Shown piece after piece: positions 22,428 to 50,251 of a stretch of DNA of 64,000 nt. This stretch comes from an uncultured bacterium. GTDB lineage: Bacteria; Actinomycetota; Coriobacteriia; Coriobacteriales; Coriobacteriaceae. Under the pieces are notes generated by a model that saw nothing but the letters and a program-made list of their open reading frames with translations, made no database searches and had not been told where the DNA came from. The stretch is from positions 2,797 to 66,796 of the forward strand of contig CAJMOP010000001.1 of the NCBI GenBank assembly GCA_905215115.1. Direction: 5' to 3'. Positions within the stretch are counted from its first letter, which is position 1. Every line of letters starts with the position of its first letter. Made by a program: the position numbers and the translations under genes.

Positions 22428-23348
22428 GTGGCAACTCAGAAATTCACCGGCGTTATCCCTCCCGTCGTTGTTCCCGATACCGAAGATCACCAGCTCGACG
22501 TTGCCTCCTTTGAGCGCAGCATCAACCGCATGATCGATGCCGGCGTCGATGGCCTGTTCTTCTTGGGATCCTCGGGCGAGGTCGTCTTCTCCACCGACGA
22601 GCGCCGTCGCCAGATTATCGCCGAGGCCGTTCGTATCGTCGACCACCGCGTTCCCGTTCTGGTCGGCATCATCGATACCGAGACCGAGCGCATGATCGAG
22701 CACGGCAAGGTCGCCCAGGAGCTGGGCGCCGATGCCCTCGTCGCCACCTGCCCGTTCTATGCCCTGCAGGGCATGACCGAGGTCGAGGAGCACTTCCGCA
22801 TCCTGCACGAGGAGCTCGACCTGCCCATCTTTGCCTATGACATTCCCGTGTGCGTCCACACCAAGCTCCCCTGGAAGCTCCTTGCCAAGCTCGGCGCCGA
22901 GGGCGTTCTGGCCGGCGTCAAGGATTCCTCGGGTGATGACATCTCGTTCCGCTACCTCGTTCAGGAGAACGAGAAGAACGGCCATCCGATGAGCATCCTC
23001 ACCGGTCACGAGGTTGTTGTCGACGGCGCTTACCTTGGTGGCGCCGACGGTTCCGTTCCGGGTCTCGCCAACGTTGAGCCCGAGGGCTACGTGCGTCAGT
23101 GGAAGGCCGCCCAGGCTGGTGACTGGGCTACCGTCAAGGCCGAGCAGGATCGCCTCAATGAGATTTCGCACATCTGGGATGTCACCTCGGGCGTTCAGGG
23201 CTATGCCGGTGGCGTCGGCGCCTTCAAGACCGCTATGAACCTCATGGGTATCTTTGACAGCCCGACCATGCCGCGCCCGGTGAAGGCCATGACTGGCGAG
23301 AACGTCGAGGCGATTCGCAAGGTCCTTCAGGACAACGGTCTCCTGTAA
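22428..23348 (+). CDS. nanA: N-acetylneuraminate lyase (DHDPS/NAL family)
   Basis: Motifs GSSGE, TCPFY and Schiff-base Lys context GVKDSSGD. GTG 22428 follows AAGGAG. The NanA versus DapA call rests on nanK/nanE context. Confidence 0.7.
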   Translation: MATQKFTGVIPPVVVPDTEDHQLDVASFERSINRMIDAGVDGLFFLGSSGEVVFSTDERRRQIIAEAVRIVDHRVPVLVGIIDTETERMIEHGKVAQELGADALVATCPFYALQGMTEVEEHFRILHEELDLPIFAYDIPVCVHTKLPWKLLAKLGAEGVLAGVKDSSGDDISFRYLVQENEKNGHPMSILTGHEVVVDGAYLGGADGSVPGLANVEPEGYVRQWKAAQAGDWATVKAEQDRLNEISHIWDVTSGVQGYAGGVGAFKTAMNLMGIFDSPTMPRPVKAMTGENVEAIRKVLQDNGLL

Positions 23349-23519
23349 AGCTTCCCCAGGCACCCGATCTTGGGGCTCAAGTGGTCGGGCGTGACCCATT
23401 AGGTCAACGCCCGACCACTTTCACCCCAACCTCGGGCACCTGGGAAACCTTTACCAAGTTGCGGCGATAACACCGCCTTCATTTCCTGTAGTTGTTATTT
23501 ATCTCCTAAGGAGAGCGAC

Positions 23520-30515: not shown

Positions 30516-32069
30516 ATGGCACAGCGTCATCTTCCTGCACTCCTGATCATCATGGATGGCTGCGGCCTTGCTCCGGCCGATGGCGAGAACGCCGTCGCCG
30601 CTGCCAAGACGCCCTTCCTTGATAGCCTGTACGAGAAGTATCCTCACACCACGCTCGGTGCTTCGGGCGAGGACGTGGGCCTTCCCGACGGTCAGATGGG
30701 CAACTCCGAGGTAGGCCACCTCAACATCGGTGCCGGCCGCATCGTGTTCCAGGAGCTTTCGCGCATCAACAACGCCATCAAGGACGGCTCCATCGCCAAG
30801 AACGAGGTTTTCGTCAAAGCTATGGACGACGTCAAGGCCGAAGGCAAGACCCTGCACCTCATGGGCCTTATGAGCCCTGGCGGTGTTCATTCTCACATGA
30901 ACCACGTCGAGGCTCTGGTCAAGATGGCTGCCCAGCATGGCGTCAAGACCGTTCGCGTCCACGCCTTCATGGATGGCCGCGACGTCGACCCGCAGTCCGG
31001 TGCCGGCTACATGAGCGAGTTCTGCGCTTTCCTGGCTAAGATCTCCGAGGAGACCGGTTGCGACGCTCGCGTTGCCACCGTTTCGGGCCGCTATTGGGCC
31101 ATGGACCGCGACAACCGTTGGGAGCGCATCCAGCGCGCCTACGACGTCATGGTCAACGCGTCCGATGCCGATACCGACCCCGTTGCCGGTATCAAGGCCT
31201 ACTACGAGAAGGATCCGCGCGGCGACGAGTTCGTCGAGCCTTTCGCGGCCCACAACGAGGGCATCCACGAGGGCGACGCGGCCATCTTCTTCAACTTCCG
31301 TCCCGACCGCGCTCGTCAGATGACCCGCGTGTTCACGGACAAGGAGTTCGATGGCTTTGAGCGCGAGCAGATTAAGCTCTCGCACTTTGTGACGATGACC
31401 GAGTACGATCCGACGTTTGACGTCGAGGTCGCCTTCCCCAAGACGTTCCCCGAGAACGTCCTGGCCGACGTTATCGCCGCCAATGGCCTGAAGCAGCTGC
31501 ACACCGCCGAGACCGAGAAGTACGCTCACGTGACGTTCTTCCTCAACGGCGGCATCGAGGAGCCCAAGGAGGGCGAGGAGCGCGTGCTCGTCGCTTCCCC
31601 CAAGGTCGCTACCTACGATCTGCAGCCCGAGATGAGCGCTCCCGAGGTTACCGAGAAGCTTGTCGCCGCTATCAACGAGGATCGCGCTGATTTCTACATC
31701 GTGAACTTCGCAAATTGCGACATGGTTGGTCACACCGGTGTCTTCGACGCCGCCGTTAAGGCCGTCGAGGCTGTTGACGATGCTCTGTCCAAGGTTGTCC
31801 CGGCGATTCTCGCCAAGGGCGGCTTTGCGCTGATTACCGCCGACCACGGCAACGCCGATCACATGTTTGACGTTGCTTCCGACGGTTCCAAGCATCCGTT
31901 CACGGCTCACACCACCAACCGTGTGCCGTTCATCATCGTTGATGAGAAGGCGCAGCTCACCGGTATCGAGGACGGCCGTCTTTCCGATATCGCTCCGACC
32001 ATGCTCACCATGGCTGGTATTGAGCCTTCCGCCGAGATGACGGGTCGCGTGCTCGCCACCGAGGCCTAA
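30516..32069 (+). CDS. gpmI: 2,3-bisphosphoglycerate-independent phosphoglycerate mutase
   Basis: LIIMDGCG, MGNSEVGHLNIGAGR and ADHGNA motifs. 517 aa. Confidence 0.95.
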   Translation: MAQRHLPALLIIMDGCGLAPADGENAVAAAKTPFLDSLYEKYPHTTLGASGEDVGLPDGQMGNSEVGHLNIGAGRIVFQELSRINNAIKDGSIAKNEVFVKAMDDVKAEGKTLHLMGLMSPGGVHSHMNHVEALVKMAAQHGVKTVRVHAFMDGRDVDPQSGAGYMSEFCAFLAKISEETGCDARVATVSGRYWAMDRDNRWERIQRAYDVMVNASDADTDPVAGIKAYYEKDPRGDEFVEPFAAHNEGIHEGDAAIFFNFRPDRARQMTRVFTDKEFDGFEREQIKLSHFVTMTEYDPTFDVEVAFPKTFPENVLADVIAANGLKQLHTAETEKYAHVTFFLNGGIEEPKEGEERVLVASPKVATYDLQPEMSAPEVTEKLVAAINEDRADFYIVNFANCDMVGHTGVFDAAVKAVEAVDDALSKVVPAILAKGGFALITADHGNADHMFDVASDGSKHPFTAHTTNRVPFIIVDEKAQLTGIEDGRLSDIAPTMLTMAGIEPSAEMTGRVLATEA

Positions 32070-32096
32070 TAGAAAACAAATACCGTTTTCTTATAA

Positions 32097-32129
32097 GGGG
32101 GTTGTCCACAATCGGGCAACCCCCTTTTT
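32097..32129 (+). terminator. Rho-independent terminator of the gap-pgk-tpiA-gpmI operon
   Basis: GGGGGTTG ... CAACCCCC stem followed by TTTTT. It directly abuts the left REP-like repeat. Confidence 0.75.
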
Positions 32130-32166
32130 CTGCCATTTGGGGACGGGGTAGAAATGGCAGAAATAG
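32130..32166 (+). repeat. Left REP-like hairpin repeat flanking the RayT-like gene
   Basis: CTGCCATTTGGGGACGGGGTAGAAATGGCAGAAATAG. It folds on itself as CTGCCATTT / AAATGGCAG. Confidence 0.8.
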
Positions 32167-32304
32167 TTTTCCTCTAAAGCTTGACTTTCCGTTTGCCTGT
32201 GATGGCTTGCCGCTGGCTAGTTTTCTTTCGTTGCCAACCTTGTATTAATGCCTATCTGGGTAGAGTTTGATGCAAACTATGCTTGTGGATTGTGAGGTCC
32301 AGCA

Positions 32305-33054
32305 ATGACAAGGCAGGCCAGAGTTAAGTCCCCCTACGGCTATTACCACGTGATGATGAGAGGCTGTGGCAAGCAGTATCTATTCGAAGAGGATTATCAG
32401 CGCAGGTTTTTCTTGTCCGTAGCTGGCGAAGCATGCACGCGGTACAAGGCATCTCTGTGCGCCTGGTGCCTCATGGACAATCACGTGCATATGCTGCTTT
32501 CTGATCACGAGGACCATATGTGGGAGATTGTCCATTACATAGGAACCCTCTATGGTCAGTTTTTCAACAGGGTGACCGGACACTGTGGCCCTGTATTTCA
32601 GGATCGCTATAAAAGTAAGCCAATCGAGTCTAACGACTATTTTATGCAAGCAATTCGCTATATTCACGATAATCCGATTGAGCTTGGTTGCCGTCCGGAA
32701 TGCTACCAATGGAGCAGCTATCAAGCCTATCTTGGTGAAGGCGGCCATCTGGACCGAAGCATCCTATTTAGTCTAATCGGTGGACAGGGAAATTTTGAAT
32801 CCTTTAGCAAATCGGGCCGCAAGGATACCTATGTATTGAATACTGGTCGTTCGATGACGGTATTTGAGCAGGAGCGCAAGGCTAGGGGAGTTCTGAACGG
32901 CATGGATCCCCATAATGTTATAGGGCTTCCCGGTCCATTTGAACGTGCCGAGGCTGTTCGCAGGCTGTATGAGGCTGGCTTTAGTGAGCGACAGATTGTT
33001 CGTCTTACGGGGCTTGGACGCTATGTCGTTCAAAATGCTGTCAAATCACTTTAA
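32305..33054 (+). CDS. REP-associated tyrosine transposase-like protein (RayT / IS200-like Y1 HUH family) with C-terminal HTH
   Basis: HUH motif DNHVHMLL, catalytic-Tyr context AIRYIHDNP, and C-terminal HTH-like GFSERQIVRLTGLGRYVVQNAV. RBS GTGAGG. Confidence 0.75.
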   Translation: MTRQARVKSPYGYYHVMMRGCGKQYLFEEDYQRRFFLSVAGEACTRYKASLCAWCLMDNHVHMLLSDHEDHMWEIVHYIGTLYGQFFNRVTGHCGPVFQDRYKSKPIESNDYFMQAIRYIHDNPIELGCRPECYQWSSYQAYLGEGGHLDRSILFSLIGGQGNFESFSKSGRKDTYVLNTGRSMTVFEQERKARGVLNGMDPHNVIGLPGPFERAEAVRRLYEAGFSERQIVRLTGLGRYVVQNAVKSL

Positions 33055-33071
33055 TAGATGAAAATCAAGAG

Positions 33072-33108
33072 CTATTTCTGCCATTTCTACCCCGTCCCCG
33101 AGTGGCAG
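33072..33108 (-). repeat. Right REP-like hairpin repeat (inverted copy)
   Basis: Its reverse complement, CTGCCACTCGGGGACGGGGTAGAAATGGCAGAAATAG, differs from the left copy at 2 positions. Confidence 0.8.
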
Positions 33109-33174
33109 GTAGGGGAGAGCGGGGGATTGTGGTACAGTACTGGAGTTTGAATTGTTCTATTAAGGAGCTTATCT

Positions 33175-33429
33175 ATGGGTCCGTTTCAGATTCTTCTGTT
33201 TATCGTTTGGGCTGTTTCTGCCGTGGCGCTGACGATTCTCGTTCTGATGCATTCCGGTAAGGGCACCGGCGTTTCGGATATGATCGCTAGCTCGCTGTAT
33301 AACTCCAGCTCTGCCACGGGCGTCATGGAGCAGAACCTCGATCGCCTGACGGTAATTATGGCCGTCGTTTTTGCCGTGTGTGTCGTTCTGTGCATGTTCT
33401 TCTTCCCGCAGGGCATCGTCGGCTACTAA
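33175..33429 (+). CDS. secG: Preprotein translocase subunit SecG
   Basis: 84-aa two-TM protein with LMHSGKGTG. RBS AAGGAG. It occupies the conserved position after the glycolytic genes. Confidence 0.9.
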   Translation: MGPFQILLFIVWAVSAVALTILVLMHSGKGTGVSDMIASSLYNSSSATGVMEQNLDRLTVIMAVVFAVCVVLCMFFFPQGIVGY

Positions 33430-33454
33430 GCATCGGCGTATATACGTTTGTAAA

Positions 33455-33482
33455 GGGTCCCGCATGTGCGGGGCCCTTTTTG
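33455..33482 (+). terminator. Rho-independent terminator after secG
   Basis: GGGTCCCGCA / TGCGGGGCCC stem followed by TTTTT. Confidence 0.7.
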
Positions 33483-33719
33483 TTTACAGACTTGTAATAG
33501 AGTCAAAATATCCCCACATACTTCGCCTAACTAAAGAAATTCTCGACCGTTAACCGGAATTAGCGCCATATTGTGCATAAAATGCGCTACTGTATTGCGA
33601 AACGTTGGTCCGCACTGCATAACCAGCCATAACGGCGGACCGCGTTTGAATGGTTCGAATGGGCTGTCTCGACGTTGCCCGGCCGAATTCACTTTGTCCT
33701 ATCTCATAAGGAGGATGGC

Positions 33720-35396
33720 ATGGCTGATTCTATGTTCCACCAGCCCGTTATGGGTCGTCGCGCCTTTGTTGGCGGCACCCTCGCTGCGAGCTCCATGGCT
33801 TTTCTTGCCGCGTGCGGCAAGAAGGGCGGCGACGCTTCCGGATCTGACTCCGGTTCGACGCTGAACTTCTACATCAACAACCCGGTCTGCATCGACCCCT
33901 ACAACGTCCAGGAGGATCAGGGCACTCAGGTCGAGTACCAGCTCTTCGACGCTCTGACGGAGTACGACCCCGAGAAGGGCGAGATCGTTCCGCTGGCTTG
34001 CGAGTCCTTTGAGGCTAACGACGACGCCACCGAGTTCACCTTCAAGATCAAGAAGGCCAAGTTCCACAACGGTGACGACGTTACTTCCAAGTCCTTCAAG
34101 CTCGGTTGGGAGCGCCTGGTCAACACCAAGTCGGCCATCGCTACCGAGTATGGTCCTTCCGAGGTCTCCTACCACCTTTCCATGGTCGAGGGCTATGACG
34201 ATCTGCTTGCCGGCAACGCTACCGAGCTCAGCGGTGTTACTTGCCCCGACGATGAGACCCTCGTCGTCAAGCTGTCTTCCGCTTACGCCGACTTCCCCTT
34301 CGTCGCCTCTCACCCGGCTCTGTCCCCGGTTCCCGAGTGCGCCGAGTCCGATGTCAAGAGCTTCTACCTTGCCCCGGTCGGTAACGGCCCGTTCATGATG
34401 GACGGCAAGTGGGAGGATGGTCAGGAGATCAACCTCAAGAAGTTTGACGATTACTATGGCGACAAGGCCAAGATCGACGCCATCCACTTCCAGGTCATCA
34501 AGGACATGGAGACCGCTTACAAGGAGTTCCAGGCCGGTAACCTCGATGTCTGCGACGTTCCCGTTGCTCAGATCGATGCCGCCAAGAAGGACCGTGGCGA
34601 GTCCAAGGACGGTTACACCATGGGTGACGGCGAGCATATGCTGCTCGGTGCCGAGCCTTCCACGTACTATCTGACCTGCAACACCACGGCCGAGCCGTTC
34701 AATAACGCCGACCTGCGCAAGGGCATCTCCCTGGCCATCAACCGTGAGGCCATCTGCAAGACCATCTTCAAGGGTACCCGTACCCCCGCCGACGGTATTG
34801 TTCCTCCGGGAATCGCCGGCTACAAGGAGGGCGCATGGGAGTTCTGCGCCTATGACGTCGACAAGGCTAACGAGTACCTCGACAAGGTCGCTCCCGCTGG
34901 CGCTAACGGCGATCGTGGCATTAGCGTGACCCTTTCCTACAACCAGGACGGTGGTCACAAGGAGATCATGGAGTCCATCATCGGCGACCTCGCCAAGGTT
35001 GGCGTTACCGCTGTCTCCGATACCCCTGAGTGGTCTGCCCTGCTCGAGCAGTATCAGAACTTCAACTATCAGTTCGGCCGTCTGGGCTGGATCGCCGATT
35101 ACCCGATCATGGACAACTTCCTGTACCCGCTGTTCCACTCCGACTCCCTCGGTGGCGACAACCGCTCCGGTTACAGTAACCCCGAGTTCGATGCCAAGGT
35201 CGACGAGGCCCGCACCACGGTTGATGACGAGGAGCGCATCGCCAAGATGCGGGAGGCCGACGCCATGGTCGCTGCTGACTGCCCGGTTATCCCGGTGATG
35301 TTCTACACGCACACCATCGCTGGCTCTGACCGCGTCAAGCATCTCTATGTTGATCCGCAGAAGCACGCCGATCTGGGTACCGCCGAGCTCGCCTAA
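33720..35396 (+). CDS. oppA: Oligopeptide ABC transporter substrate-binding lipoprotein
   Basis: Tat-like and lipobox signal GRRAFVGGTLAASSMAFLAACG. Family-5 SBP. RBS AAGGAGG. Confidence 0.85.
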   Translation: MADSMFHQPVMGRRAFVGGTLAASSMAFLAACGKKGGDASGSDSGSTLNFYINNPVCIDPYNVQEDQGTQVEYQLFDALTEYDPEKGEIVPLACESFEANDDATEFTFKIKKAKFHNGDDVTSKSFKLGWERLVNTKSAIATEYGPSEVSYHLSMVEGYDDLLAGNATELSGVTCPDDETLVVKLSSAYADFPFVASHPALSPVPECAESDVKSFYLAPVGNGPFMMDGKWEDGQEINLKKFDDYYGDKAKIDAIHFQVIKDMETAYKEFQAGNLDVCDVPVAQIDAAKKDRGESKDGYTMGDGEHMLLGAEPSTYYLTCNTTAEPFNNADLRKGISLAINREAICKTIFKGTRTPADGIVPPGIAGYKEGAWEFCAYDVDKANEYLDKVAPAGANGDRGISVTLSYNQDGGHKEIMESIIGDLAKVGVTAVSDTPEWSALLEQYQNFNYQFGRLGWIADYPIMDNFLYPLFHSDSLGGDNRSGYSNPEFDAKVDEARTTVDDEERIAKMREADAMVAADCPVIPVMFYTHTIAGSDRVKHLYVDPQKHADLGTAELA

Positions 35397-38635: not shown

Positions 38636-39664
<1,029 letters not shown>

Positions 39665-39680: not shown

Positions 39681-39804
39681 GGGCCCGCCTGGTGTTACTT
39701 TTCAGAACGTCCTCGGACATGTCGGAAGCCCCGCTGCGCGCTACGCGCTGCGGGGCTTCCTCCGTCCTGCGGAATGTTCTGAAAAGCAACACCAGGGCGG
39801 GCCC
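39681..39804. repeat. Composite nested hairpin element E1 (124 nt)
   Basis: 28-bp outer stem (GGGCCCGCCTGGTGTTACTTTTCAGAAC / GTTCTGAAAAGCAACACCAGGGCGGGCCC) with one A:C mismatch and one bulge. Internal loops are GTCCTCGGACATGTC and TCCGTCCTGCGGAAT. Inner hairpin is GGAAGCCCCGC-T-GCGCG(CTA)CGCGC-T-GCGGGGCTTCC. Confidence 0.9.
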
Positions 39805-39870
39805 TGCGTTAACGCGGCAGAGGGGAGTGAGATTCCTTGATCGCTCACTTAATCTAATAGGAAAGTTAGT

Positions 39871-39925: not shown

Positions 39926-39985
39926 ACCAAATTTGCATCAGCCCCAGAACATGTTTGAGAACTGTGCCTGGAGTATGTGTTGGTA

Positions 39986-40110
39986 GGCCCCGAATCGGTG
40001 TTGCCTCCCGGCGCATTCCGCAGGGGGAGCGATATTTTGCAGCACGAAGTGCGTAGCAAAATATCGCCCATGCCCGAGGACGCGCCGGGAGGCAACACCG
40101 ATTCGGGGCC
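39986..40110. repeat. Composite nested hairpin element E2 (125 nt), inverted relative to E1
   Basis: Perfect 29-bp outer stem (GGCCCCGAATCGGTGTTGCCTCCCGGCGC and its complement). Loops are ATTCCGCAGGGGGA and CCATGCCCGAGGAC. Inner stem is GCGATATTTTGC / GCAAAATATCGC. Confidence 0.9.
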
Positions 40111-40167: not shown

Positions 40168-40197
40168 TTGCACAGTTCTCGAATCATAGGTTATTAT
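40168..40197 (+). promoter_or_regulatory. Candidate promoter of tRNA-Leu with an upstream A-tract
   Basis: TTTTTTGAAAAAAGTGC-TTGCAC-N18-TATTAT. It shares the AAAAAAGTNCTTGC architecture with the other two tRNA promoters. Confidence 0.55.
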
Positions 40198-40251: not shown

Positions 40252-40341
40252 GTCGGAGTGGCGGAATTGGCAGACGCGCTAGCTTGAGGTGCTAGTGACC
40301 GCTTTTTGGTCATGCGGGTTCAAGTCCCGCCTCCGACACCA
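40252..40341 (+). tRNA. tRNA-Leu (anticodon GAG), CCA encoded
   Basis: Acceptor GTCGGAG/CTCCGAC, anticodon arm CTAGC-TTGAGGT-GCTAG, long variable arm, and T-arm GCGGG-TTCAAGT-CCCGC. Confidence 0.9.
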
Positions 40342-43676: not shown

Positions 43677-43752
43677 GCGGACATGGCTCAGTTGGTAGAG
43701 CACAACCTTGCCAAGGTTGGGGTCGCGGGTTCGAGCCCCGTTGTCCGCTCCA
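43677..43752 (+). tRNA. tRNA-Gly (anticodon GCC), copy 1
   Basis: Acceptor GCGGACA/TGTCCGC, anticodon arm CAACC-TTGCCAA-GGTTG, and T-arm GCGGG-TTCGAGC-CCCGT. CCA encoded. Confidence 0.95.
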
Positions 43753-43786
43753 TTGCATTTCCGGACCGTTTAGGCGGTCCTTTTTA

Positions 43787-43860
43787 GGCGAAGTGGCCAA
43801 GTGGTAAGGCAGAGGCCTGCAAAGCCTTTACCCCCGGTTCGAATCCGGGCTTCGCCTCCA
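43787..43860 (+). tRNA. tRNA-Cys (anticodon GCA)
   Basis: Acceptor GGCGAAG/CTTCGCC, anticodon loop CTGCAAA, and T-arm CCCGG-TTCGAAT-CCGGG. CCA encoded. Confidence 0.9.
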
Positions 43861-43902
43861 GGCAACATCCGGGCGCTCCGGCGCCCGTTTTGTTTTACAT
43901 AT

Positions 43903-43978
43903 GCGGACATGGCTCAGTTGGTAGAGCACAACCTTGCCAAGGTTGGGGTCGCGGGTTCGAGCCCCGTTGTCCGCTCCA
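43903..43978 (+). tRNA. tRNA-Gly (anticodon GCC), copy 2
   Basis: 76/76 identical to copy 1. Confidence 0.95.
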
Positions 43979-46186: not shown

Positions 46187-46262
46187 GCGGACATGGCTCA
46201 GTTGGTAGAGCACAACCTTGCCAAGGTTGGGGTCGCGGGTTCGAGCCCCGTTGTCCGCTCCA
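46187..46262 (+). tRNA. tRNA-Gly (anticodon GCC), copy 3
   Basis: 76/76 identical to copies 1 and 2. Confidence 0.95.
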
Positions 46263-46265
46263 TTT

Positions 46266-46340
46266 GGGCGTTTAGCTCAGGGGGAGAGCGCTTCCCTGAC
46301 ACGGAAGAGGTCAGAAGTTCAAATCTTCTAACGCCCACCA
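46266..46340 (+). tRNA. tRNA-Val (anticodon GAC)
   Basis: Acceptor GGGCGTT/AACGCCC, anticodon arm CTTCC-CTGACAC-GGAAG, and T-arm AGAAG-TTCAAAT-CTTCT. CCA encoded. Confidence 0.9.
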
Positions 46341-46796: not shown

Positions 46797-47020
46797 TTCT
46801 TTGTCGTATGATAGATGGCGGACAGAGAACGAAGACCTTAACTGCCTCTTTTGAACGTGTCCTTGAACCGCTTGATTGGCTCTAGGGAATGTCCGCATGG
46901 AGGCTTATGGTTTATCGAGAACACAGATTGCGCGACGGCGCCGCAAGGCAGGGGCAGGCCCTGCCGGGCATCGTTTGGCTCTGAAGCGCAATGAGGCTAC
47001 GACGCGAAAGAGGCAAGAGG

Positions 47021-49243
47021 ATGAAGATCATCAAGCGCAGCGGCACCGAGGTTGTCTTTGACATCGATAAGATCGTCAATGCCATCCGCGCCGCAAACTT
47101 GGAGGTCGAGGAGAGCTCTCGTCTTACCGACCGCCAGGTGGTTTATGCGGCGCAAAACGTCGCCGAGGCATGCGAGAACGCGGGCCACACCGTTTCGGTC
47201 GAGGAGATCCAGGATTTGGTCGAGGACGAGATCATGCGTCTCGACTGCTACGAGGTCGCCCGCCACTACATCATCTATCGCTATGTTCAGAGCCTGAAGC
47301 GCCAGAAGAACACGACCGACGACAAGATTCTGTCGCTGATCGAGTGCAATAACGAAGAGGTCAAGCAGGAGAACTCTAACAAGAACCCGACCGTCAATTC
47401 CGTCCAGCGCGACTATATGGCCGGCGAGATTTCAAAGGATCTGACTCAGCGTGTGCTGCTGCCCCAGGAGATCGTGGATGCCCACAATGAGGGCCTGATC
47501 CACTTCCACGATTCTGACTACTTTGCCCAGCACATGCATAACTGCGACCTGGTGAACCTGGAGGACATGCTCCAGAACGGCACCGTTATCTCGGGCACGC
47601 TGATCGAGAAGCCGCACAGCTTCTCGACTGCCTGCAACATCGCGACGCAGATTATCGCCCAGGTTGCTTCCTCCCAGTACGGCGGCCAGTCTATTTCGCT
47701 GACCCATCTTGCCCCGTTTGTTGAGGTGAGCCGTCAAAAGATTCGCGGCGAGGTTGCCCGCGAGCTCGAGGAGCTCGGTGTTTCGGCATCTGCCGAAAAG
47801 GTCCGTGAGGTCGTTGAGGACCGTCTGCGCGATGAGATCCGTCGCGGCGTCCAGACGATTCAGTATCAGGTCGTGACCCTTATGACCACCAATGGCCAGG
47901 CGCCGTTCGTGACGGTCTTTATGTATCTCAATGAGGCCCGTACGCCCCAGGAGAAGCACGACCTTGCCATGATCGTGGAGGAGACGCTTCGTCAACGCTA
48001 TGAGGGCGTTAAGAACGAAGCCGGTGTGTGGATTACCCCGGCATTCCCCAAGCTTATCTACGTGCTCGAGGACGATAACATTCGCGAGGATTCGCCGTAC
48101 TTCTATCTGACCAAGCTCGCCGCCAAGTGCACCGCCAAGCGCATGGTGCCCGATTACATCTCCGAGAAGAAGATGCGCGAGCTCAAGCTGTCGAAGGGCG
48201 AGACCGCCGGCAACGGCGATTGCTACACCTGCATGGGTTGTCGCAGTTTCCTGACGCCCGACCGCTCGGGCAACGGCTTTAACAATGTTGCCAACGCGCT
48301 GAACTATGACCCGACCAAACCTAAGTACTATGGCCGCTTTAACCAGGGTGTTGTGACCATCAACCTGCCCGATGTCGCGCTGAGCTCGCATCAGGACATG
48401 GACAAGTTCTGGAAGATCTTCGATGAGCGCCTTGAGCTGTGCCATCGTGCCCTGCTGTGCCGTCATGAGCGCCTGATGGGCACGCTTTCGGATGCCGCGC
48501 CGATTCTTTGGCAGTACGGCGCCCTGGCGCGTCTGAAGAAGGGCGAGACGATCGATAAGCTGCTCGTGGGCGGCTATTCCACCATCAGCCTGGGGTATGC
48601 CGGCCTGTATGAGTGCGTCAAGTACATGACGGGCCACAGCCACACCGAGAAGGAGGGCACGCCCTTTGCCATGGCAGTCATGCAGCGCATGAACGACAAG
48701 TGCGCCGAGTGGAAGGCCGAAAGCGATATTGACTTCTCGCTGTACGGTACCCCGCTTGAGTCGACGACCTACAAGTTCGCCAAGTGCCTGCAGCGTCGTT
48801 TTGGCATCATCCCGGGCGTGACGGACAAGGGCTACATCACCAACAGCTACCACGTCCACGTGTCCGAGGAGATCGACGCATTCGACAAGCTCAAGTTCGA
48901 GGGCATGTTCCAGCAGCTTTCGCCGGGCGGTGCCATCTCCTACGTCGAGGTTCCCAACATGCAGGACAACCTCAAGGCTGTCATCCGCGTGATGCAGTAT
49001 ATCTACGACAACATCATGTACGCCGAGCTCAACACCAAGAGCGACTACTGCCAGGTGTGCGGCTACGATGGCGAGATCAAGATTGTCGAGGATGACGGCA
49101 AGCTGGTGTGGGAGTGCCCCAGCTGCGGCAACCGCGACCAGGAGAAGATGAATGTCGCCCGTCGCACGTGCGGCTACATCGGTACCCAGTTCTGGAACCA
49201 GGGTCGAACCGAGGAGATCCGCGACCGCGTGCTGCATCTCTAA
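47021..49243 (+). CDS. nrdD: Anaerobic ribonucleoside-triphosphate reductase
   Basis: N-terminal ATP-cone (MKIIKRSGTEVVFDIDKI), C-terminal Zn ribbon (CQVCGY...CPSCG), and glycyl-radical motif RRTCGYIG. Confidence 0.95.
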   Translation: MKIIKRSGTEVVFDIDKIVNAIRAANLEVEESSRLTDRQVVYAAQNVAEACENAGHTVSVEEIQDLVEDEIMRLDCYEVARHYIIYRYVQSLKRQKNTTDDKILSLIECNNEEVKQENSNKNPTVNSVQRDYMAGEISKDLTQRVLLPQEIVDAHNEGLIHFHDSDYFAQHMHNCDLVNLEDMLQNGTVISGTLIEKPHSFSTACNIATQIIAQVASSQYGGQSISLTHLAPFVEVSRQKIRGEVARELEELGVSASAEKVREVVEDRLRDEIRRGVQTIQYQVVTLMTTNGQAPFVTVFMYLNEARTPQEKHDLAMIVEETLRQRYEGVKNEAGVWITPAFPKLIYVLEDDNIREDSPYFYLTKLAAKCTAKRMVPDYISEKKMRELKLSKGETAGNGDCYTCMGCRSFLTPDRSGNGFNNVANALNYDPTKPKYYGRFNQGVVTINLPDVALSSHQDMDKFWKIFDERLELCHRALLCRHERLMGTLSDAAPILWQYGALARLKKGETIDKLLVGGYSTISLGYAGLYECVKYMTGHSHTEKEGTPFAMAVMQRMNDKCAEWKAESDIDFSLYGTPLESTTYKFAKCLQRRFGIIPGVTDKGYITNSYHVHVSEEIDAFDKLKFEGMFQQLSPGGAISYVEVPNMQDNLKAVIRVMQYIYDNIMYAELNTKSDYCQVCGYDGEIKIVEDDGKLVWECPSCGNRDQEKMNVARRTCGYIGTQFWNQGRTEEIRDRVLHL

Positions 49244-49254
49244 TAACCATCCCA

Positions 49255-49392
49255 GGCCGCCCCGTAGCGAGGCCCCGGACCTTTACTCGCTATTTCGGAC
49301 AGTCCTGGCTCACGACGGAGGCGCCACTGGCGCCTCCTGTTCGTGCGGAACTCATATCGAGCAAAGGTCCGGGGCCTCGCTACGGGGCGGCC
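49255..49392. repeat. Composite nested hairpin element E3 (138 nt), same family and orientation as E1
   Basis: 35-bp outer stem (GGCCGCCCCGTAGCGAGGCCCCGGACCTTTACTCG / CGAGCAAAGGTCCGGGGCCTCGCTACGGGGCGGCC) with one A:C mismatch. The loops contain TTTCGGACAGTCC and CGTGCGGAAC. Inner hairpin is GGAGGCGCC-ACT-GGCGCCTCC. Confidence 0.9.
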
Positions 49393-49570
49393 AAGTTGAT
49401 GTAGCTGAGATGCAGCACGCAGCCTGCTCGCTCCTCGAAGTTCTTAGCGGAAATGAGTTGACTTGCAACAACGCTTTGCTTGCGATGGCGGTTGAGCCGC
49501 AGCCCAGTTTTTATTAGACCTCGAACCCTATACTCGATGTTCGCTTCGTTCATTGAGTTACCCTTTGCAT

Positions 49571-49654
49571 GAGGCCGGGACATATCGTCCCGCCCGCAGT
49601 TTCGCAGGCCGAAGGCCGAGAATGTTTGAGGACGGGATGATATGTCCCGGCCTC
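49571..49654. repeat. Composite nested hairpin element E4 (84 nt), same family and orientation as E2
   Basis: 22-bp outer stem (GAGGCCGGGACATATCGTCCCG / CGGGATGATATGTCCCGGCCTC) with one G:T. Loops are CCCGCAGTTTCGCA and GAGAATGTTTGAGGA. Inner hairpin is GGCC-GAA-GGCC. It ends 15 nt before the nrdG ATG. Confidence 0.8.
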
Positions 49655-49669
49655 CCGGGAGAGTTACCT

Positions 49670-50251
49670 ATGAACTACGCGAACATTAAGTATTTCGACA
49701 TTGCTGATGGAGAAGGCGTCCGCACTTCTCTGTTTGTGAGCGGGTGCCGTCGTGGCTGCAAGAATTGCTTTAACTCCGTCGCGTGGGACTTTGCCGCGGG
49801 CGAGCCGTTTGATCGTGCCGTCGAGGACAAGATTATCGAGAGCCTCGATCATCCCTTTATTGACGGCCTGACGATTCTGGGCGGAGAGCCCATGGAGCCC
49901 GAGAACCAGGCGGGGCTCGTTGAGTTTGTCGAGCGTGTTCGTGCCGCTTATCCTGCGGGGTCAGGAAAGACCATTTGGTGTTTTACCGGCGACGTGCTCG
50001 AGGAGCTTATGCCGGGTGGTCGTCACCATACTGAGGTGACGGACCGTATCCTTGCCTGCCTCGACATGTTGGTGGATGGCCCGTTTGTTCAGGATCTTTA
50101 TGATATCTCGTTGCGCTTTAGGGGCTCGAGTAACCAGCGTGTGATCGATATGAACGCTACGCGCGACCGCGCTGTGCGTGAGGGCGTTGCGCTTTGCGAC
50201 GCTGTGGAGCTTTGGCGGGACGATCCAGTCTATTCGACCCATACTATGTAG
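49670..50251 (+). CDS. nrdG: Anaerobic ribonucleotide reductase activating protein (radical SAM)
   Basis: MNYANIKYFDIADGEGVRTSLFVSGCRRGCKNCFN, containing CxxxCxxC. RBS GGGAGAG. The upstream in-frame starts in the ORF track lie inside hairpin E4. Confidence 0.9.
   Translation: MNYANIKYFDIADGEGVRTSLFVSGCRRGCKNCFNSVAWDFAAGEPFDRAVEDKIIESLDHPFIDGLTILGGEPMEPENQAGLVEFVERVRAAYPAGSGKTIWCFTGDVLEELMPGGRHHTEVTDRILACLDMLVDGPFVQDLYDISLRFRGSSNQRVIDMNATRDRAVREGVALCDAVELWRDDPVYSTHTM

Follow-up and report, generated by a model that had tools for sequence, protein, structure and literature searches.

The genes nrdD and nrdG, which encode the anaerobic ribonucleotide reductase and its radical-SAM activase, lie 426 nt apart in a stretch of 64,000 nt from contig CAJMOP010000001.1 (the window), which is Collinsella aerofaciens-like, and the locus raises the question of what fills this gap and what it may do there. 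The spacer holds two hairpins, named E3 and E4 in a first-pass annotation, which regarded them as relatives of a second hairpin pair, E1 and E2, situated between oppF and the tRNA-Leu promoter of the same window. The explanation favoured here, with a probability of roughly 60%, is that E3 and E4 are diverged members of a superfamily of palindromic non-coding repeats that lie between genes, whose arms would grow by fold-back copying and whose sense-oriented copies would act as hairpins at the 3' ends of mRNAs. Open reading frames (ORFs) and public gene calls concur with the annotated limits of the gap (nrdD stop at 49243, nrdG start at 49670), and the nrdG start agrees with that of relatives in which the spacer is 6 nt. 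A public assembly collection lists the window's NrdG protein in 2709 blocks; the ten NrdG contigs displayed come from ENA assemblies, and those related metagenome contigs whose names are descriptive carry a human-gut label.

Both hairpins are genuine, and their annotated coordinates (Table 1) are upheld. E3 has 39-nt arms, 95% complementary, which enclose a 60-nt core; the inner palindrome recognised earlier (GGAGGCGCCA/TGGCGCCTCC) is present, whereas the outer stem, put at 35 bp in the first-pass annotation, is longer by this measure. E4 has 28-nt arms of 89% complementarity around a 28-nt core with a GGCC mini-hairpin, and the 22-bp outer stem ascribed to it corresponds to the continuous part of these arms. 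Judged against dinucleotide shuffles, E3 RNA has a minimum free energy of -106 kcal/mol (z = -11.5; 0 of 200 shuffles as good) and E4 RNA one of -59.7 kcal/mol (z = -9.4), with both strands folding far better than shuffles. The two elements are 178 nt apart (49393-49570) and E1 and E2 182 nt apart, so that the repeated geometry proposed for the two pairs holds for their spacing; nevertheless, it is not a rule, since many elements are solo and inverted pairs elsewhere are spaced by 94 nt (locus L028) or 256 nt (L183).

Relationship to E1 and E2 was judged against a canonical family, for which the pattern TCCTCGGRCATG-N30-60-CTGCGGAATG was searched in a species-representative genome collection. 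At least 120 stretches matched, all titled records among the matches listed being Collinsella or Coriobacteriaceae, and about 20 distinct element types were left once orthologues of the oppF locus had been removed. From 5' to 3', a canonical element comprises an outer stem of 28-41 bp, CGTCCTCGGRCATG, an inner hairpin (as a rule with a C-TTC-G apex), CGTCCTGCGGAATG and the returning outer stem. Its core consists of two direct repeats (CGTCCTCGGACATG / CGTCCTGCGGAATG) either side of the small inner hairpin, and by inspection the folded loops give a pseudo-two-fold symmetric internal loop in which TCC/GGA pairs flank a small bubble. E2, read in the minus sense, has the exact loop strings GTCCTCGGRCATG and CCTGCGGAATG in common with E1, but its outer stem shares no sequence with that of E1. 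In an alignment of 20 representatives (A1), compensatory double changes occur in 43 of the 53 consensus pairs. Across the superfamily the arms measure 22-70 bp, are nearly all Watson-Crick and differ between copies and strains, and the core is built of direct repeats of a 13-20 nt motif around a short inner hairpin.

A covariance model trained on canonical elements from other loci only (R1) scored E2 at 132.1 bits in sense (minus strand) and 66.6 antisense, and E1 at 119.5 bits in sense (plus strand) and 65.2 antisense. The first-pass annotation had assigned both E3 and E4 to this family and had proposed scoring them with such a model. E4 passes weakly and in the predicted minus sense (37.6 bits against 25.7 on the plus strand), with the motifs TTCTCGGCC and CCTGCGAAAC aligned and the inner hairpin nearly deleted; an E4-type element lying in sense right after nrdD in L183 reaches 49.2 bits. 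E3, on the other hand, obtains a generic hairpin score without strand preference (36.0 bits on the plus and 37.8 on the minus strand), its core being left unaligned. As a generic baseline, an unrelated hairpin at 23345-23454, of undefined sense, scored 24.0 (plus) and 26.4 bits (minus). The loop strings quoted earlier as diverged E1/E2 motifs are all present, and in a permutation test the loops of E3(+) and E4(-) are closer to the canonical motifs than shuffles are (p about 0.003 and 5e-5, respectively; 0.2 for a control hairpin). The arm block said to be common to E3 and E4 (GAGGCCCCGGAC / GAGGCCGGGAC) is not conserved, the arms of other strains being quite different at both elements.

E3 belongs to a separate sister subfamily, which has a conserved core of its own. 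This core (..TCGGACAGTCCTGGCTCACGAC - inner hairpin - TGTTCGTGCGGAACTC..) shares with the canonical motifs CGTCCTCGGRCATG ... CGTCCTGCGGAATG only the 7-mers TCGGACA and TGCGGAA. The subfamily consensus, ..CAGTCCTG(G)CTCRCAC/GAC - inner hairpin - ..TCGTGCGGAACTC.. between long arms, is carried by the E3 alleles as well as by copies behind other genes, namely two in L028, those in L068/L076/L103/L120 (arms about 70 bp), and those in L186, L190 and L191. In the subfamily alignment (A2), 29 of 49 pairs show compensatory change, and the two loop strands repeat each other directly, as in canonical elements. The model built from this subfamily (R2) did not tell the strands of E1, E2 and E4 apart; the link between E3 and the canonical subfamily is drawn because architecture and context are common to both and the two 7-mers lie in matching loops. 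Placement in the superfamily can be considered firm for E4 and, for E3, as reaching the level of a sister subfamily only. Scans with Rfam 15 (at the gathering threshold for the window, with permissive settings for both pairs, and of four loci) matched no family, giving only sub-threshold matches to generic hairpins (miRNA precursors), and no description of these elements was found in the literature on Collinsella or Coriobacteriia repeats. The superfamily embracing E1-E4 is apparently undescribed and has so far been seen in Collinsella/Coriobacteriaceae only.

The junction between nrdD and nrdG was compared across 80 metagenome loci that encode relatives of NrdG. The spacer measures 419-431 nt in aerofaciens-like contigs. 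Relatives with an NrdG N-terminus 69-86% identical have spacers of 6-1262 nt, the two shortest being free of hairpins (6 nt in L188 and 33 nt in L189) and the others measuring 107, 158, 194, 208, 222, 224, 242, 485, 837 and 1262 nt. L186 has an L189-like beginning plus one E3-type hairpin, as a filled against an empty junction, and L183 has two E4-type hairpins, inverted relative to each other. The comparison of intergenic lengths suggested in the first-pass annotation thus turns up short hairpin-free spacers, and its view that the hairpins split a normally tight junction is supported for this lineage. Among NrdG relatives 57-69% identical no recognisable nrdD lies within 1.5 kb, and therefore adjacency of the two genes is not universal. 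Filled and empty junctions show that the elements entered a once-tight nrdD-nrdG junction.

The remainder of the spacer is related to the genes on either side of it, each hairpin of the window being the well-kept centre of a longer, decayed palindrome that runs into the flanking genes. Beyond E3 lies a decayed inverted copy of the nrdD 3' end (A'), which in other strains reads ..EE*ADR(M/V)LHL.. and is closer still to the NrdD ending EEIRDRVLHL. Ahead of E4 lies a copy of the nrdG start (B'), in which 49530-49553 is 83% complementary over 24 nt to the source sequence B (49670-49693). E1 and E2 are flanked by shorter copies of the same kind; three of the four flank matches in the window beat all 300 shuffles, and that at the right flank of E2 was equalled by 1 of 300. 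The same extension is found at L024 (z about 11), at the second L028 element and at L183, where a 201-nt palindrome takes in the nrdD end, and it is absent at several other loci. The E3-E4 and E1-E2 middle segments have no similarity to each other, which excludes a composite element with a common interior. These matches show the 426-nt spacer to be mostly two hairpins plus backward pseudo-copies of the neighbouring gene ends.

Table 1. Coordinates of the spacer features, the flanking genes and the E1/E2 pair in the window.
Feature	Position	Strand	Remarks
nrdD (anaerobic ribonucleotide reductase)	46991-49243	+	ORF; Pfam ATP-cone/NRDD/Gly_radical on identical public contigs
A, last codons of nrdD, source of A'	49210-49240	+	31-nt arms, 74% complementary to 49407-49437, in register with the E3 stem
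E3	49255-49392	+	E3-type palindromic element, sense orientation; starts 11 nt past the nrdD stop
E3 arms	49255-49293 and 49354-49392		
E3 5' loop	49294-49316		
E3 inner hairpin	49317-49337		
E3 3' loop	49338-49353		
Pseudo-ORF	49380-49553	-	57 codons; NrdG-like start (MNEANIEY), NrdD-like end (..EERAGCVLHL)
A', decayed inverted copy of nrdD 3' end	49407-49437	-	Complementary to A
Middle-segment centre	49438-49529	.	No recognisable origin; diversity near neutral
B', decayed inverted copy of nrdG ribosome-binding site (RBS) region and first 8 codons	49530-49570	-	
E4	49571-49654	-	Degenerate E4-type element, sense strand minus; inner hairpin reduced to GGCC-TTC-GGCC
Likely nrdG Shine-Dalgarno (SD) sequence	49657-49663	+	GGGAGAG, from the sequence; paired in the extended E4 stem of the predicted fold
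nrdG (radical-SAM activase)	49670-50251	+	ATG at 49670; Pfam Fer4_12 on identical public contigs
Inverted flank copies around E1	39636-39652 (oppF end) and 39827-39843		
E1	39681-39803	+	Canonical member; 16 nt past the oppF stop
Inverted flank copies around E2	40170-40187 (part of tRNA-Leu promoter) and 39951-39968		
E2	39986-40110	-	Canonical member, sense strand minus; upstream of tRNA-Leu

The pseudo-ORF that spans these copies on the minus strand contains stop codons in most of 40 strain haplotypes, which rules out a small protein gene, and the flank copies decay differently by strain. Public gene callers sometimes annotate the 57-aa protein. A' and B' are neutral relics of a mutational event, being neither a gene nor a tuned antisense partner. 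The palindromes probably grew by template switching during replication, a documented route to creating, perfecting and expanding hairpins; its intrastrand form yields perfect stems, multi-base compensatory changes in one step and outward expansion of inverted repeats (PMC8794818, PMC13100816). Fold-back copying of this kind would make, homogenise and lengthen the arms, and would explain both the arms and the A'/B' copies. The Collinsella elements resemble reported template-switch mutations (PMC8794818, PMC13100816, PMC7954356) in their perfect Watson-Crick stems, multi-base compensatory differences between alleles and outward growth in reverse complement, with the difference that functional gene ends were copied here (a stop-proximal coding end, an RBS with its start codon and a tRNA promoter). 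Template switching is, however, a mutational process and not an element family, and it explains neither the conserved core nor its spread. Origins in one step (tandem duplication plus inversion, staggered-break inversion or inversion by replicative transposition) were worked through by hand and fail, because they do not reproduce the order A-E-A'...B'-E-B with an asymmetric conserved core.

Diversity among 40 distinct haplotypes of the E3/E4 region separates the parts of the element. Nucleotide diversity (pi) amounts to 0.20-0.215 in the E3 arms, 0.19 in the inner stem, 0.065-0.071 in the loops and 0.128 in the middle segment, with third codon positions at 0.115 in nrdD and 0.19 in nrdG. Divergence of the E3 stems runs close to the neutral rate, yet pairing is kept at 90-100%, and the loops are under constraint. 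Two deeply separated E3 haplotypes, each with full pairing, have different bases at about half of the arm positions; smaller double changes and their one-sided intermediates occur as well. E4 has two outer-arm haplotypes, and in 5 of the 40 haplotypes recombinants leave the outer 10 bp unpaired (73% pairing). Of the positions in 101 distinct canonical arm pairs, 95.8% are Watson-Crick, the mismatches being G.T (27) about as often as A.C (25). Since selection on RNA would tolerate G.U and not A.C, this equality speaks for a process at the DNA level by which the arms are kept matched. An inner hairpin (GAAGGCCACATTAAGTGGCCTTC) is identical in E3 haplotype 2 (L002, L008, L009) and at the unrelated locus L068/L076/L103/L120, whose arms differ, which suggests gene conversion between copies.

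The cores also mark places at which the locus is rearranged. In 6 of 47 aerofaciens-like nrdG contigs another gene lies upstream and homology with the window begins inside E3, at 49271, 49295 or 49299, the left arm not being complementary to the right. Three kinds of junction were distinguished (L131, L141 and L173; L132 and L182; L136; at about 1100-1130 in each), and the L131 type recurs in three samples of differing sequence; the nrdDG operon is, on this assembly evidence, physically split in some lineages. Chimeras among canonical elements are represented by L030 and L094. In one C. aerofaciens genome (L017 1-843, orthologous to the window at about 39776), E1 is cut short by an IS256-like insertion with a 258-aa ORF resembling 'transposase, mutator family' proteins. 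Furthermore, orthologous loci in two related genomes (L190 1365-1491 and L191 1365-1487) carry the same E3-type element in opposite orientation, 10-14 nt upstream of nrdG, with no nrdD within 1.5 kb upstream. Such a flip is the expected product of recombination between palindromic arms. These junctions and the flip show that the cores serve as recombination breakpoints and are able to reverse their orientation.

Placement of the elements relative to genes was established by stop-anchored ORF checks, a gene finder based on G+C at third codon positions (GC3) being too crude. At 12 of 13 distinct canonical loci the sense element begins 6-33 nt past the stop codon of an ORF in the same orientation, the exception being of the E2 type; E3 falls within this range, and E4, like E2, lies antisense ahead of a gene start. 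The ORFs ahead of canonical elements have high GC3 (0.76-0.87) and, by Pfam, encode GroEL, class II fructose-bisphosphate aldolase, a MIP channel, pyruvate:ferredoxin oxidoreductase, PEP carboxylase, an esterase, phosphotransacetylase, an iron alcohol dehydrogenase, a GrcA-like glycyl-radical protein and a class IV aminotransferase; the remaining upstream genes are oppF and, for E3, nrdD. From identity and codon bias we infer that these genes are highly expressed. At L028 an inverted pair lies between convergent genes with each element in sense behind its own gene, which makes the inverted arrangement natural there, whereas the second element at nrdD-nrdG and at oppF-tRNA-Leu has no upstream gene of its own.

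In function the nearest parallels are REP, BIME and ERIC sequences, whose stable hairpins at the 3' end shield or terminate the preceding message and adjust the ratio of cistrons in operons, as in malEFG and in work on Yersinia ERIC. The canonical placement of the Collinsella elements suggests a comparable, REP-like role at mRNA 3' ends. A sense element would be co-transcribed with its upstream gene, usually one presumed to be highly expressed, and the very stable hairpin would end or protect that message. At nrdD-nrdG, abundant NrdD would thereby be uncoupled from the catalytic activase NrdG, with E3 favouring the gene of the stoichiometric enzyme. In a predicted fold of 49515-49710 (-93.1 kcal/mol, z -8.3) the SD and AUG of nrdG are paired with B', and an effect of E4 on nrdG translation is plausible on this model. 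The occlusion is seen as a by-product because B' is decaying; the extended E4 stem would bury the SD and AUG incidentally. So far as the evidence goes, E3 and E4 are not a special regulator of nrdG and represent one instance of the repeat family.

Several points weigh against this explanation. The 3' flanks of the elements read CTGCG.. or AAGTTGATG.. without a T-run, and a terminator scan of the spacer returned just one weak site, inside the middle segment; GC-rich hairpins without a U-tract are not canonical intrinsic (Rho-independent) terminators. Relative to local transcription E4 and E2 are antisense, which leaves no orientation-specific RNA role for these two. The equal counts of G.T and A.C mismatches argue against RNA-level selection on the arms, and the strong bias in orientation and position argues against a purely DNA-level selfish repeat. 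Conservation of the loops could stem from gene conversion among copies and may not reflect function at the level of the host. Template switching is inferred from its products, and neither target-site duplications nor an enzyme behind new copies was identified. Finally, metagenome assemblies can be mis-joined at repeats in single contigs, a concern that is countered by recurrence of the L131-type junction.

The first alternative, unlikely but deserving of a full hearing, is that the elements are structured RNAs selected by the host, in which a two-fold symmetric core with two GGA-containing strands serves for binding or processing by a dimeric RNA-binding protein or RNase and marks the 3' untranslated regions (UTRs) of presumably highly expressed genes, with E3 and E4 tuning nrdD:nrdG stoichiometry between the cistrons. 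It accounts well for loops conserved within the species (pi 0.065-0.071 against a neutral level of about 0.13-0.2) and across the genus, for covarying stems, for the rule of sense orientation and stop proximity behind central-metabolism and chaperone genes, and for direct-repeat loop strands that give a C2-like internal loop. It sits poorly, however, with arms that have no excess of G.U over A.C and with perfect duplexes of 30-70 bp, atypical of protein-binding RNAs. Nor does it anticipate that E2 and E4 are antisense, that the core flips without loss of the locus, that recombinant E4 alleles with a broken outer stem persist, that the A'/B' extensions decay neutrally, or that no Rfam family matches.

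A bolder proposal, something of a long shot, is that the core is the recognition site of a putative dimeric Collinsella protein acting on folded RNA or extruded hairpin DNA, and that the elements form a new class of cis-acting modules which mark the 3' ends of the most highly expressed genes and whose orientation can be reset by flipping of the core. If true, they would be no passive REP-like DNA, but would provide heritable, reversible control of operon polarity, here of the nrdD:nrdG ratio.

A third possibility, distinctly improbable, places the core at the DNA level, as the target of a putative enzyme (recombinase, HUH nuclease or transposase) that works on DNA in hairpin or cruciform form, with E(+)-middle-E(-) as a composite resembling a miniature inverted-repeat transposable element (MITE) and the cores as its terminal inverted repeats (TIRs). 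Filled and empty sites in relatives, chimeric arms and operon-breaking rearrangements that map to the core, the observed core flip, arms with Watson-Crick pairs only, the IS256-like insertion within E1 and a central mini-palindrome that could nucleate extrusion would all suit it. Nevertheless, no target-site duplications were found at single hairpins or pairs, the middle segments of the two pairs are unrelated and made of local flank copies, solo elements are common, the copies are highly diverged and not recent, no locus showed a linked enzyme gene, and viral contigs yielded almost no matches. Ordinary homologous recombination between repeats or arms, moreover, predicts the rearrangements and flips equally well. 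A MITE as such was rejected on the absence of direct repeats flanking hairpins or pairs, on arms that differ between copies and on the unrelated middle segments.

Very improbable is a phase-variable inverton, in which the 178-nt segment or the core would invert between the inverted repeats and switch nrdG expression. The pair of inverted repeats around a short segment directly ahead of a gene, and the E3-type core found in both orientations upstream of nrdG in two related genomes, recall such a switch, but an inverted middle segment or flipped core occurs in none of the 47 aerofaciens-like contigs, no promoter-like site was found in the nrdD-nrdG spacer, no invertase gene lies nearby, and the single flip separates diverged lineages only. 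Scarcely credible, lastly, is the idea of gene-specific terminator hairpins or chance palindromes unrelated to E1/E2, or of a minus-strand small protein gene with its own signals: the generic score of E3 with the E1/E2 model and the occasional calls of the 57-aa ORF speak for it, and against it stand z-scores of -9 to -11, the E3-type core at several other loci, the strand-specific score of E4, the missing U-tract and the stop codons in most strains.

Compared with known repeats, the palindromic repeat superfamily proposed here combines familiar placement with unusual anatomy. ERIC/IRU, Yersinia YPAL and Neisseria Correia/NEMIS elements are long imperfect palindromes of 100-170 bp co-transcribed within operons, whose folds in the mRNA alter the stability of flanking cistrons via RNase III or RNase E; their copies are alike along the whole length, and Correia elements have TIRs and TA duplications. 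The Collinsella elements are likewise palindromes inserted between operon genes, but their arms are copy-specific with compensatory change, they have no duplications, and they share no sequence similarity with these families. Integron attC sites carry R''/R' boxes (RYYYAAC / GTTRRRY) at the outer ends of the palindrome; no such boxes were seen on inspection of the element ends, whose conservation is central and not terminal. The string ACAGUCCUG in the E3 loop is one that we take to be the substrate of the sTRSV hairpin ribozyme; kinship was judged coincidental, as there is no loop-B domain and the only Rfam hit lies in the nrdG coding sequence (E = 8.6).

REPs are defined as palindromes of 20-40 bp with a terminal GTAG or CGTC tag that form inverted doublets; most of them sit downstream of ORFs, action as RNA is presumed for many, and neither of the tagged super-families was reported for Actinobacteria in that survey (PMC3733652). 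The Collinsella elements resemble the REP/BIME/REPIN sequences of Enterobacteria and Pseudomonas (PMC3733652, PMC3116915) in being dispersed non-coding palindromes located mostly just downstream of ORFs, between co-directional or convergent genes, in their frequent inverted pairs able to form larger hairpins, in promoting rearrangements and in being thought of as mRNA 3' hairpins. CGTC, the tag of one REP super-family, moreover opens both core repeats, yet it stands inside the core and not at the end of the palindrome. A REP has 20-40 bp, a conserved stem and a terminal tag, whereas the Collinsella elements have 85-200 nt, variable arms and a conserved central internal loop, and their conserved repeats are direct, unlike the inverted REP doublet. 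Identity with REP/REPIN was rejected on this size, the direct repeats and the internal CGTC. No RAYT (IS200/IS605-like Y1 transposase) adjoins an element in the 8-kb loci and the 64-kb window read, and no transposase is carried inside an element. The Collinsella-1 RNA motif (RF01700; PMC2864571) comes from the same genus and habitat and is a candidate structured non-coding element; it has no gathering-threshold match in the window or the four loci and is absent among hits to E = 10 on E1/E2 and E3/E4.

What appears to be new is a repeat family with REP-like placement but unusual anatomy, seen so far in Collinsella and relatives; the nrdD-nrdG instance gains its interest from palindrome growth by copying of gene ends, operon-breaking rearrangements and the core flip. 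C. aerofaciens is among the commonest actinobacteria of the human gut, and the family accounts for assembly breaks at these sites, for mis-called small ORFs and for the splitting, in some lineages the physical separation, of so conserved an operon as nrdDG. As bacterial examples go, the locus shows with unusual clarity how palindromes grow through backward copying of functional gene ends, a process that can yield RBS-occluding structures and pseudo-ORFs in one step. If the role in 3' UTRs proves true, the elements would open mRNA 3'-end formation in high-GC Gram-positives, where canonical terminators are scarce, to study across a whole genus.

Some smaller observations concern the elements themselves. 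In canonical elements from L011-L130 the bases just beyond the outer stem are conserved (5' ..YGTCC, stem ... stem, CTGCG.. 3'); put together, these bases look like the core motif GTCCTGCGG, a hint that the element may be built in a nested or recursive way. Two patterns searched in viral contigs gave 0 and 2 matches, the latter being the E3-type core pattern near the contig end in IMG/VR contigs L211 (12808-12862) and L212 (28-82), which may be prophage flanks or mis-binned host DNA. An FMN riboswitch (RF00050, 94 bits) at L068 4979-5171 lies near an E3-type element and has no relation to the nrdD-nrdG hairpins.

Other features belong to the window at large. The hairpin at 23345-23454 starts at the stop codon of a plus-strand gene, has imperfect 48-nt arms (81% complementary) and misses the family loop motifs; as RNA the minus strand is clearly the more stable (-91 against -72 kcal/mol), a difference that implies numerous G.U pairs in it. 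Three identical-scoring tRNA-Gly(GCC) genes, tRNA-Cys and tRNA-Val form a cluster (43677-43978, 46187-46340), and the tRNA-Leu(GAG) gene just downstream of E2 occupies 40252-40341. Positions 32001-34000 have a G+C content of 0.51 against 0.58-0.63 elsewhere in the window and may be foreign DNA.

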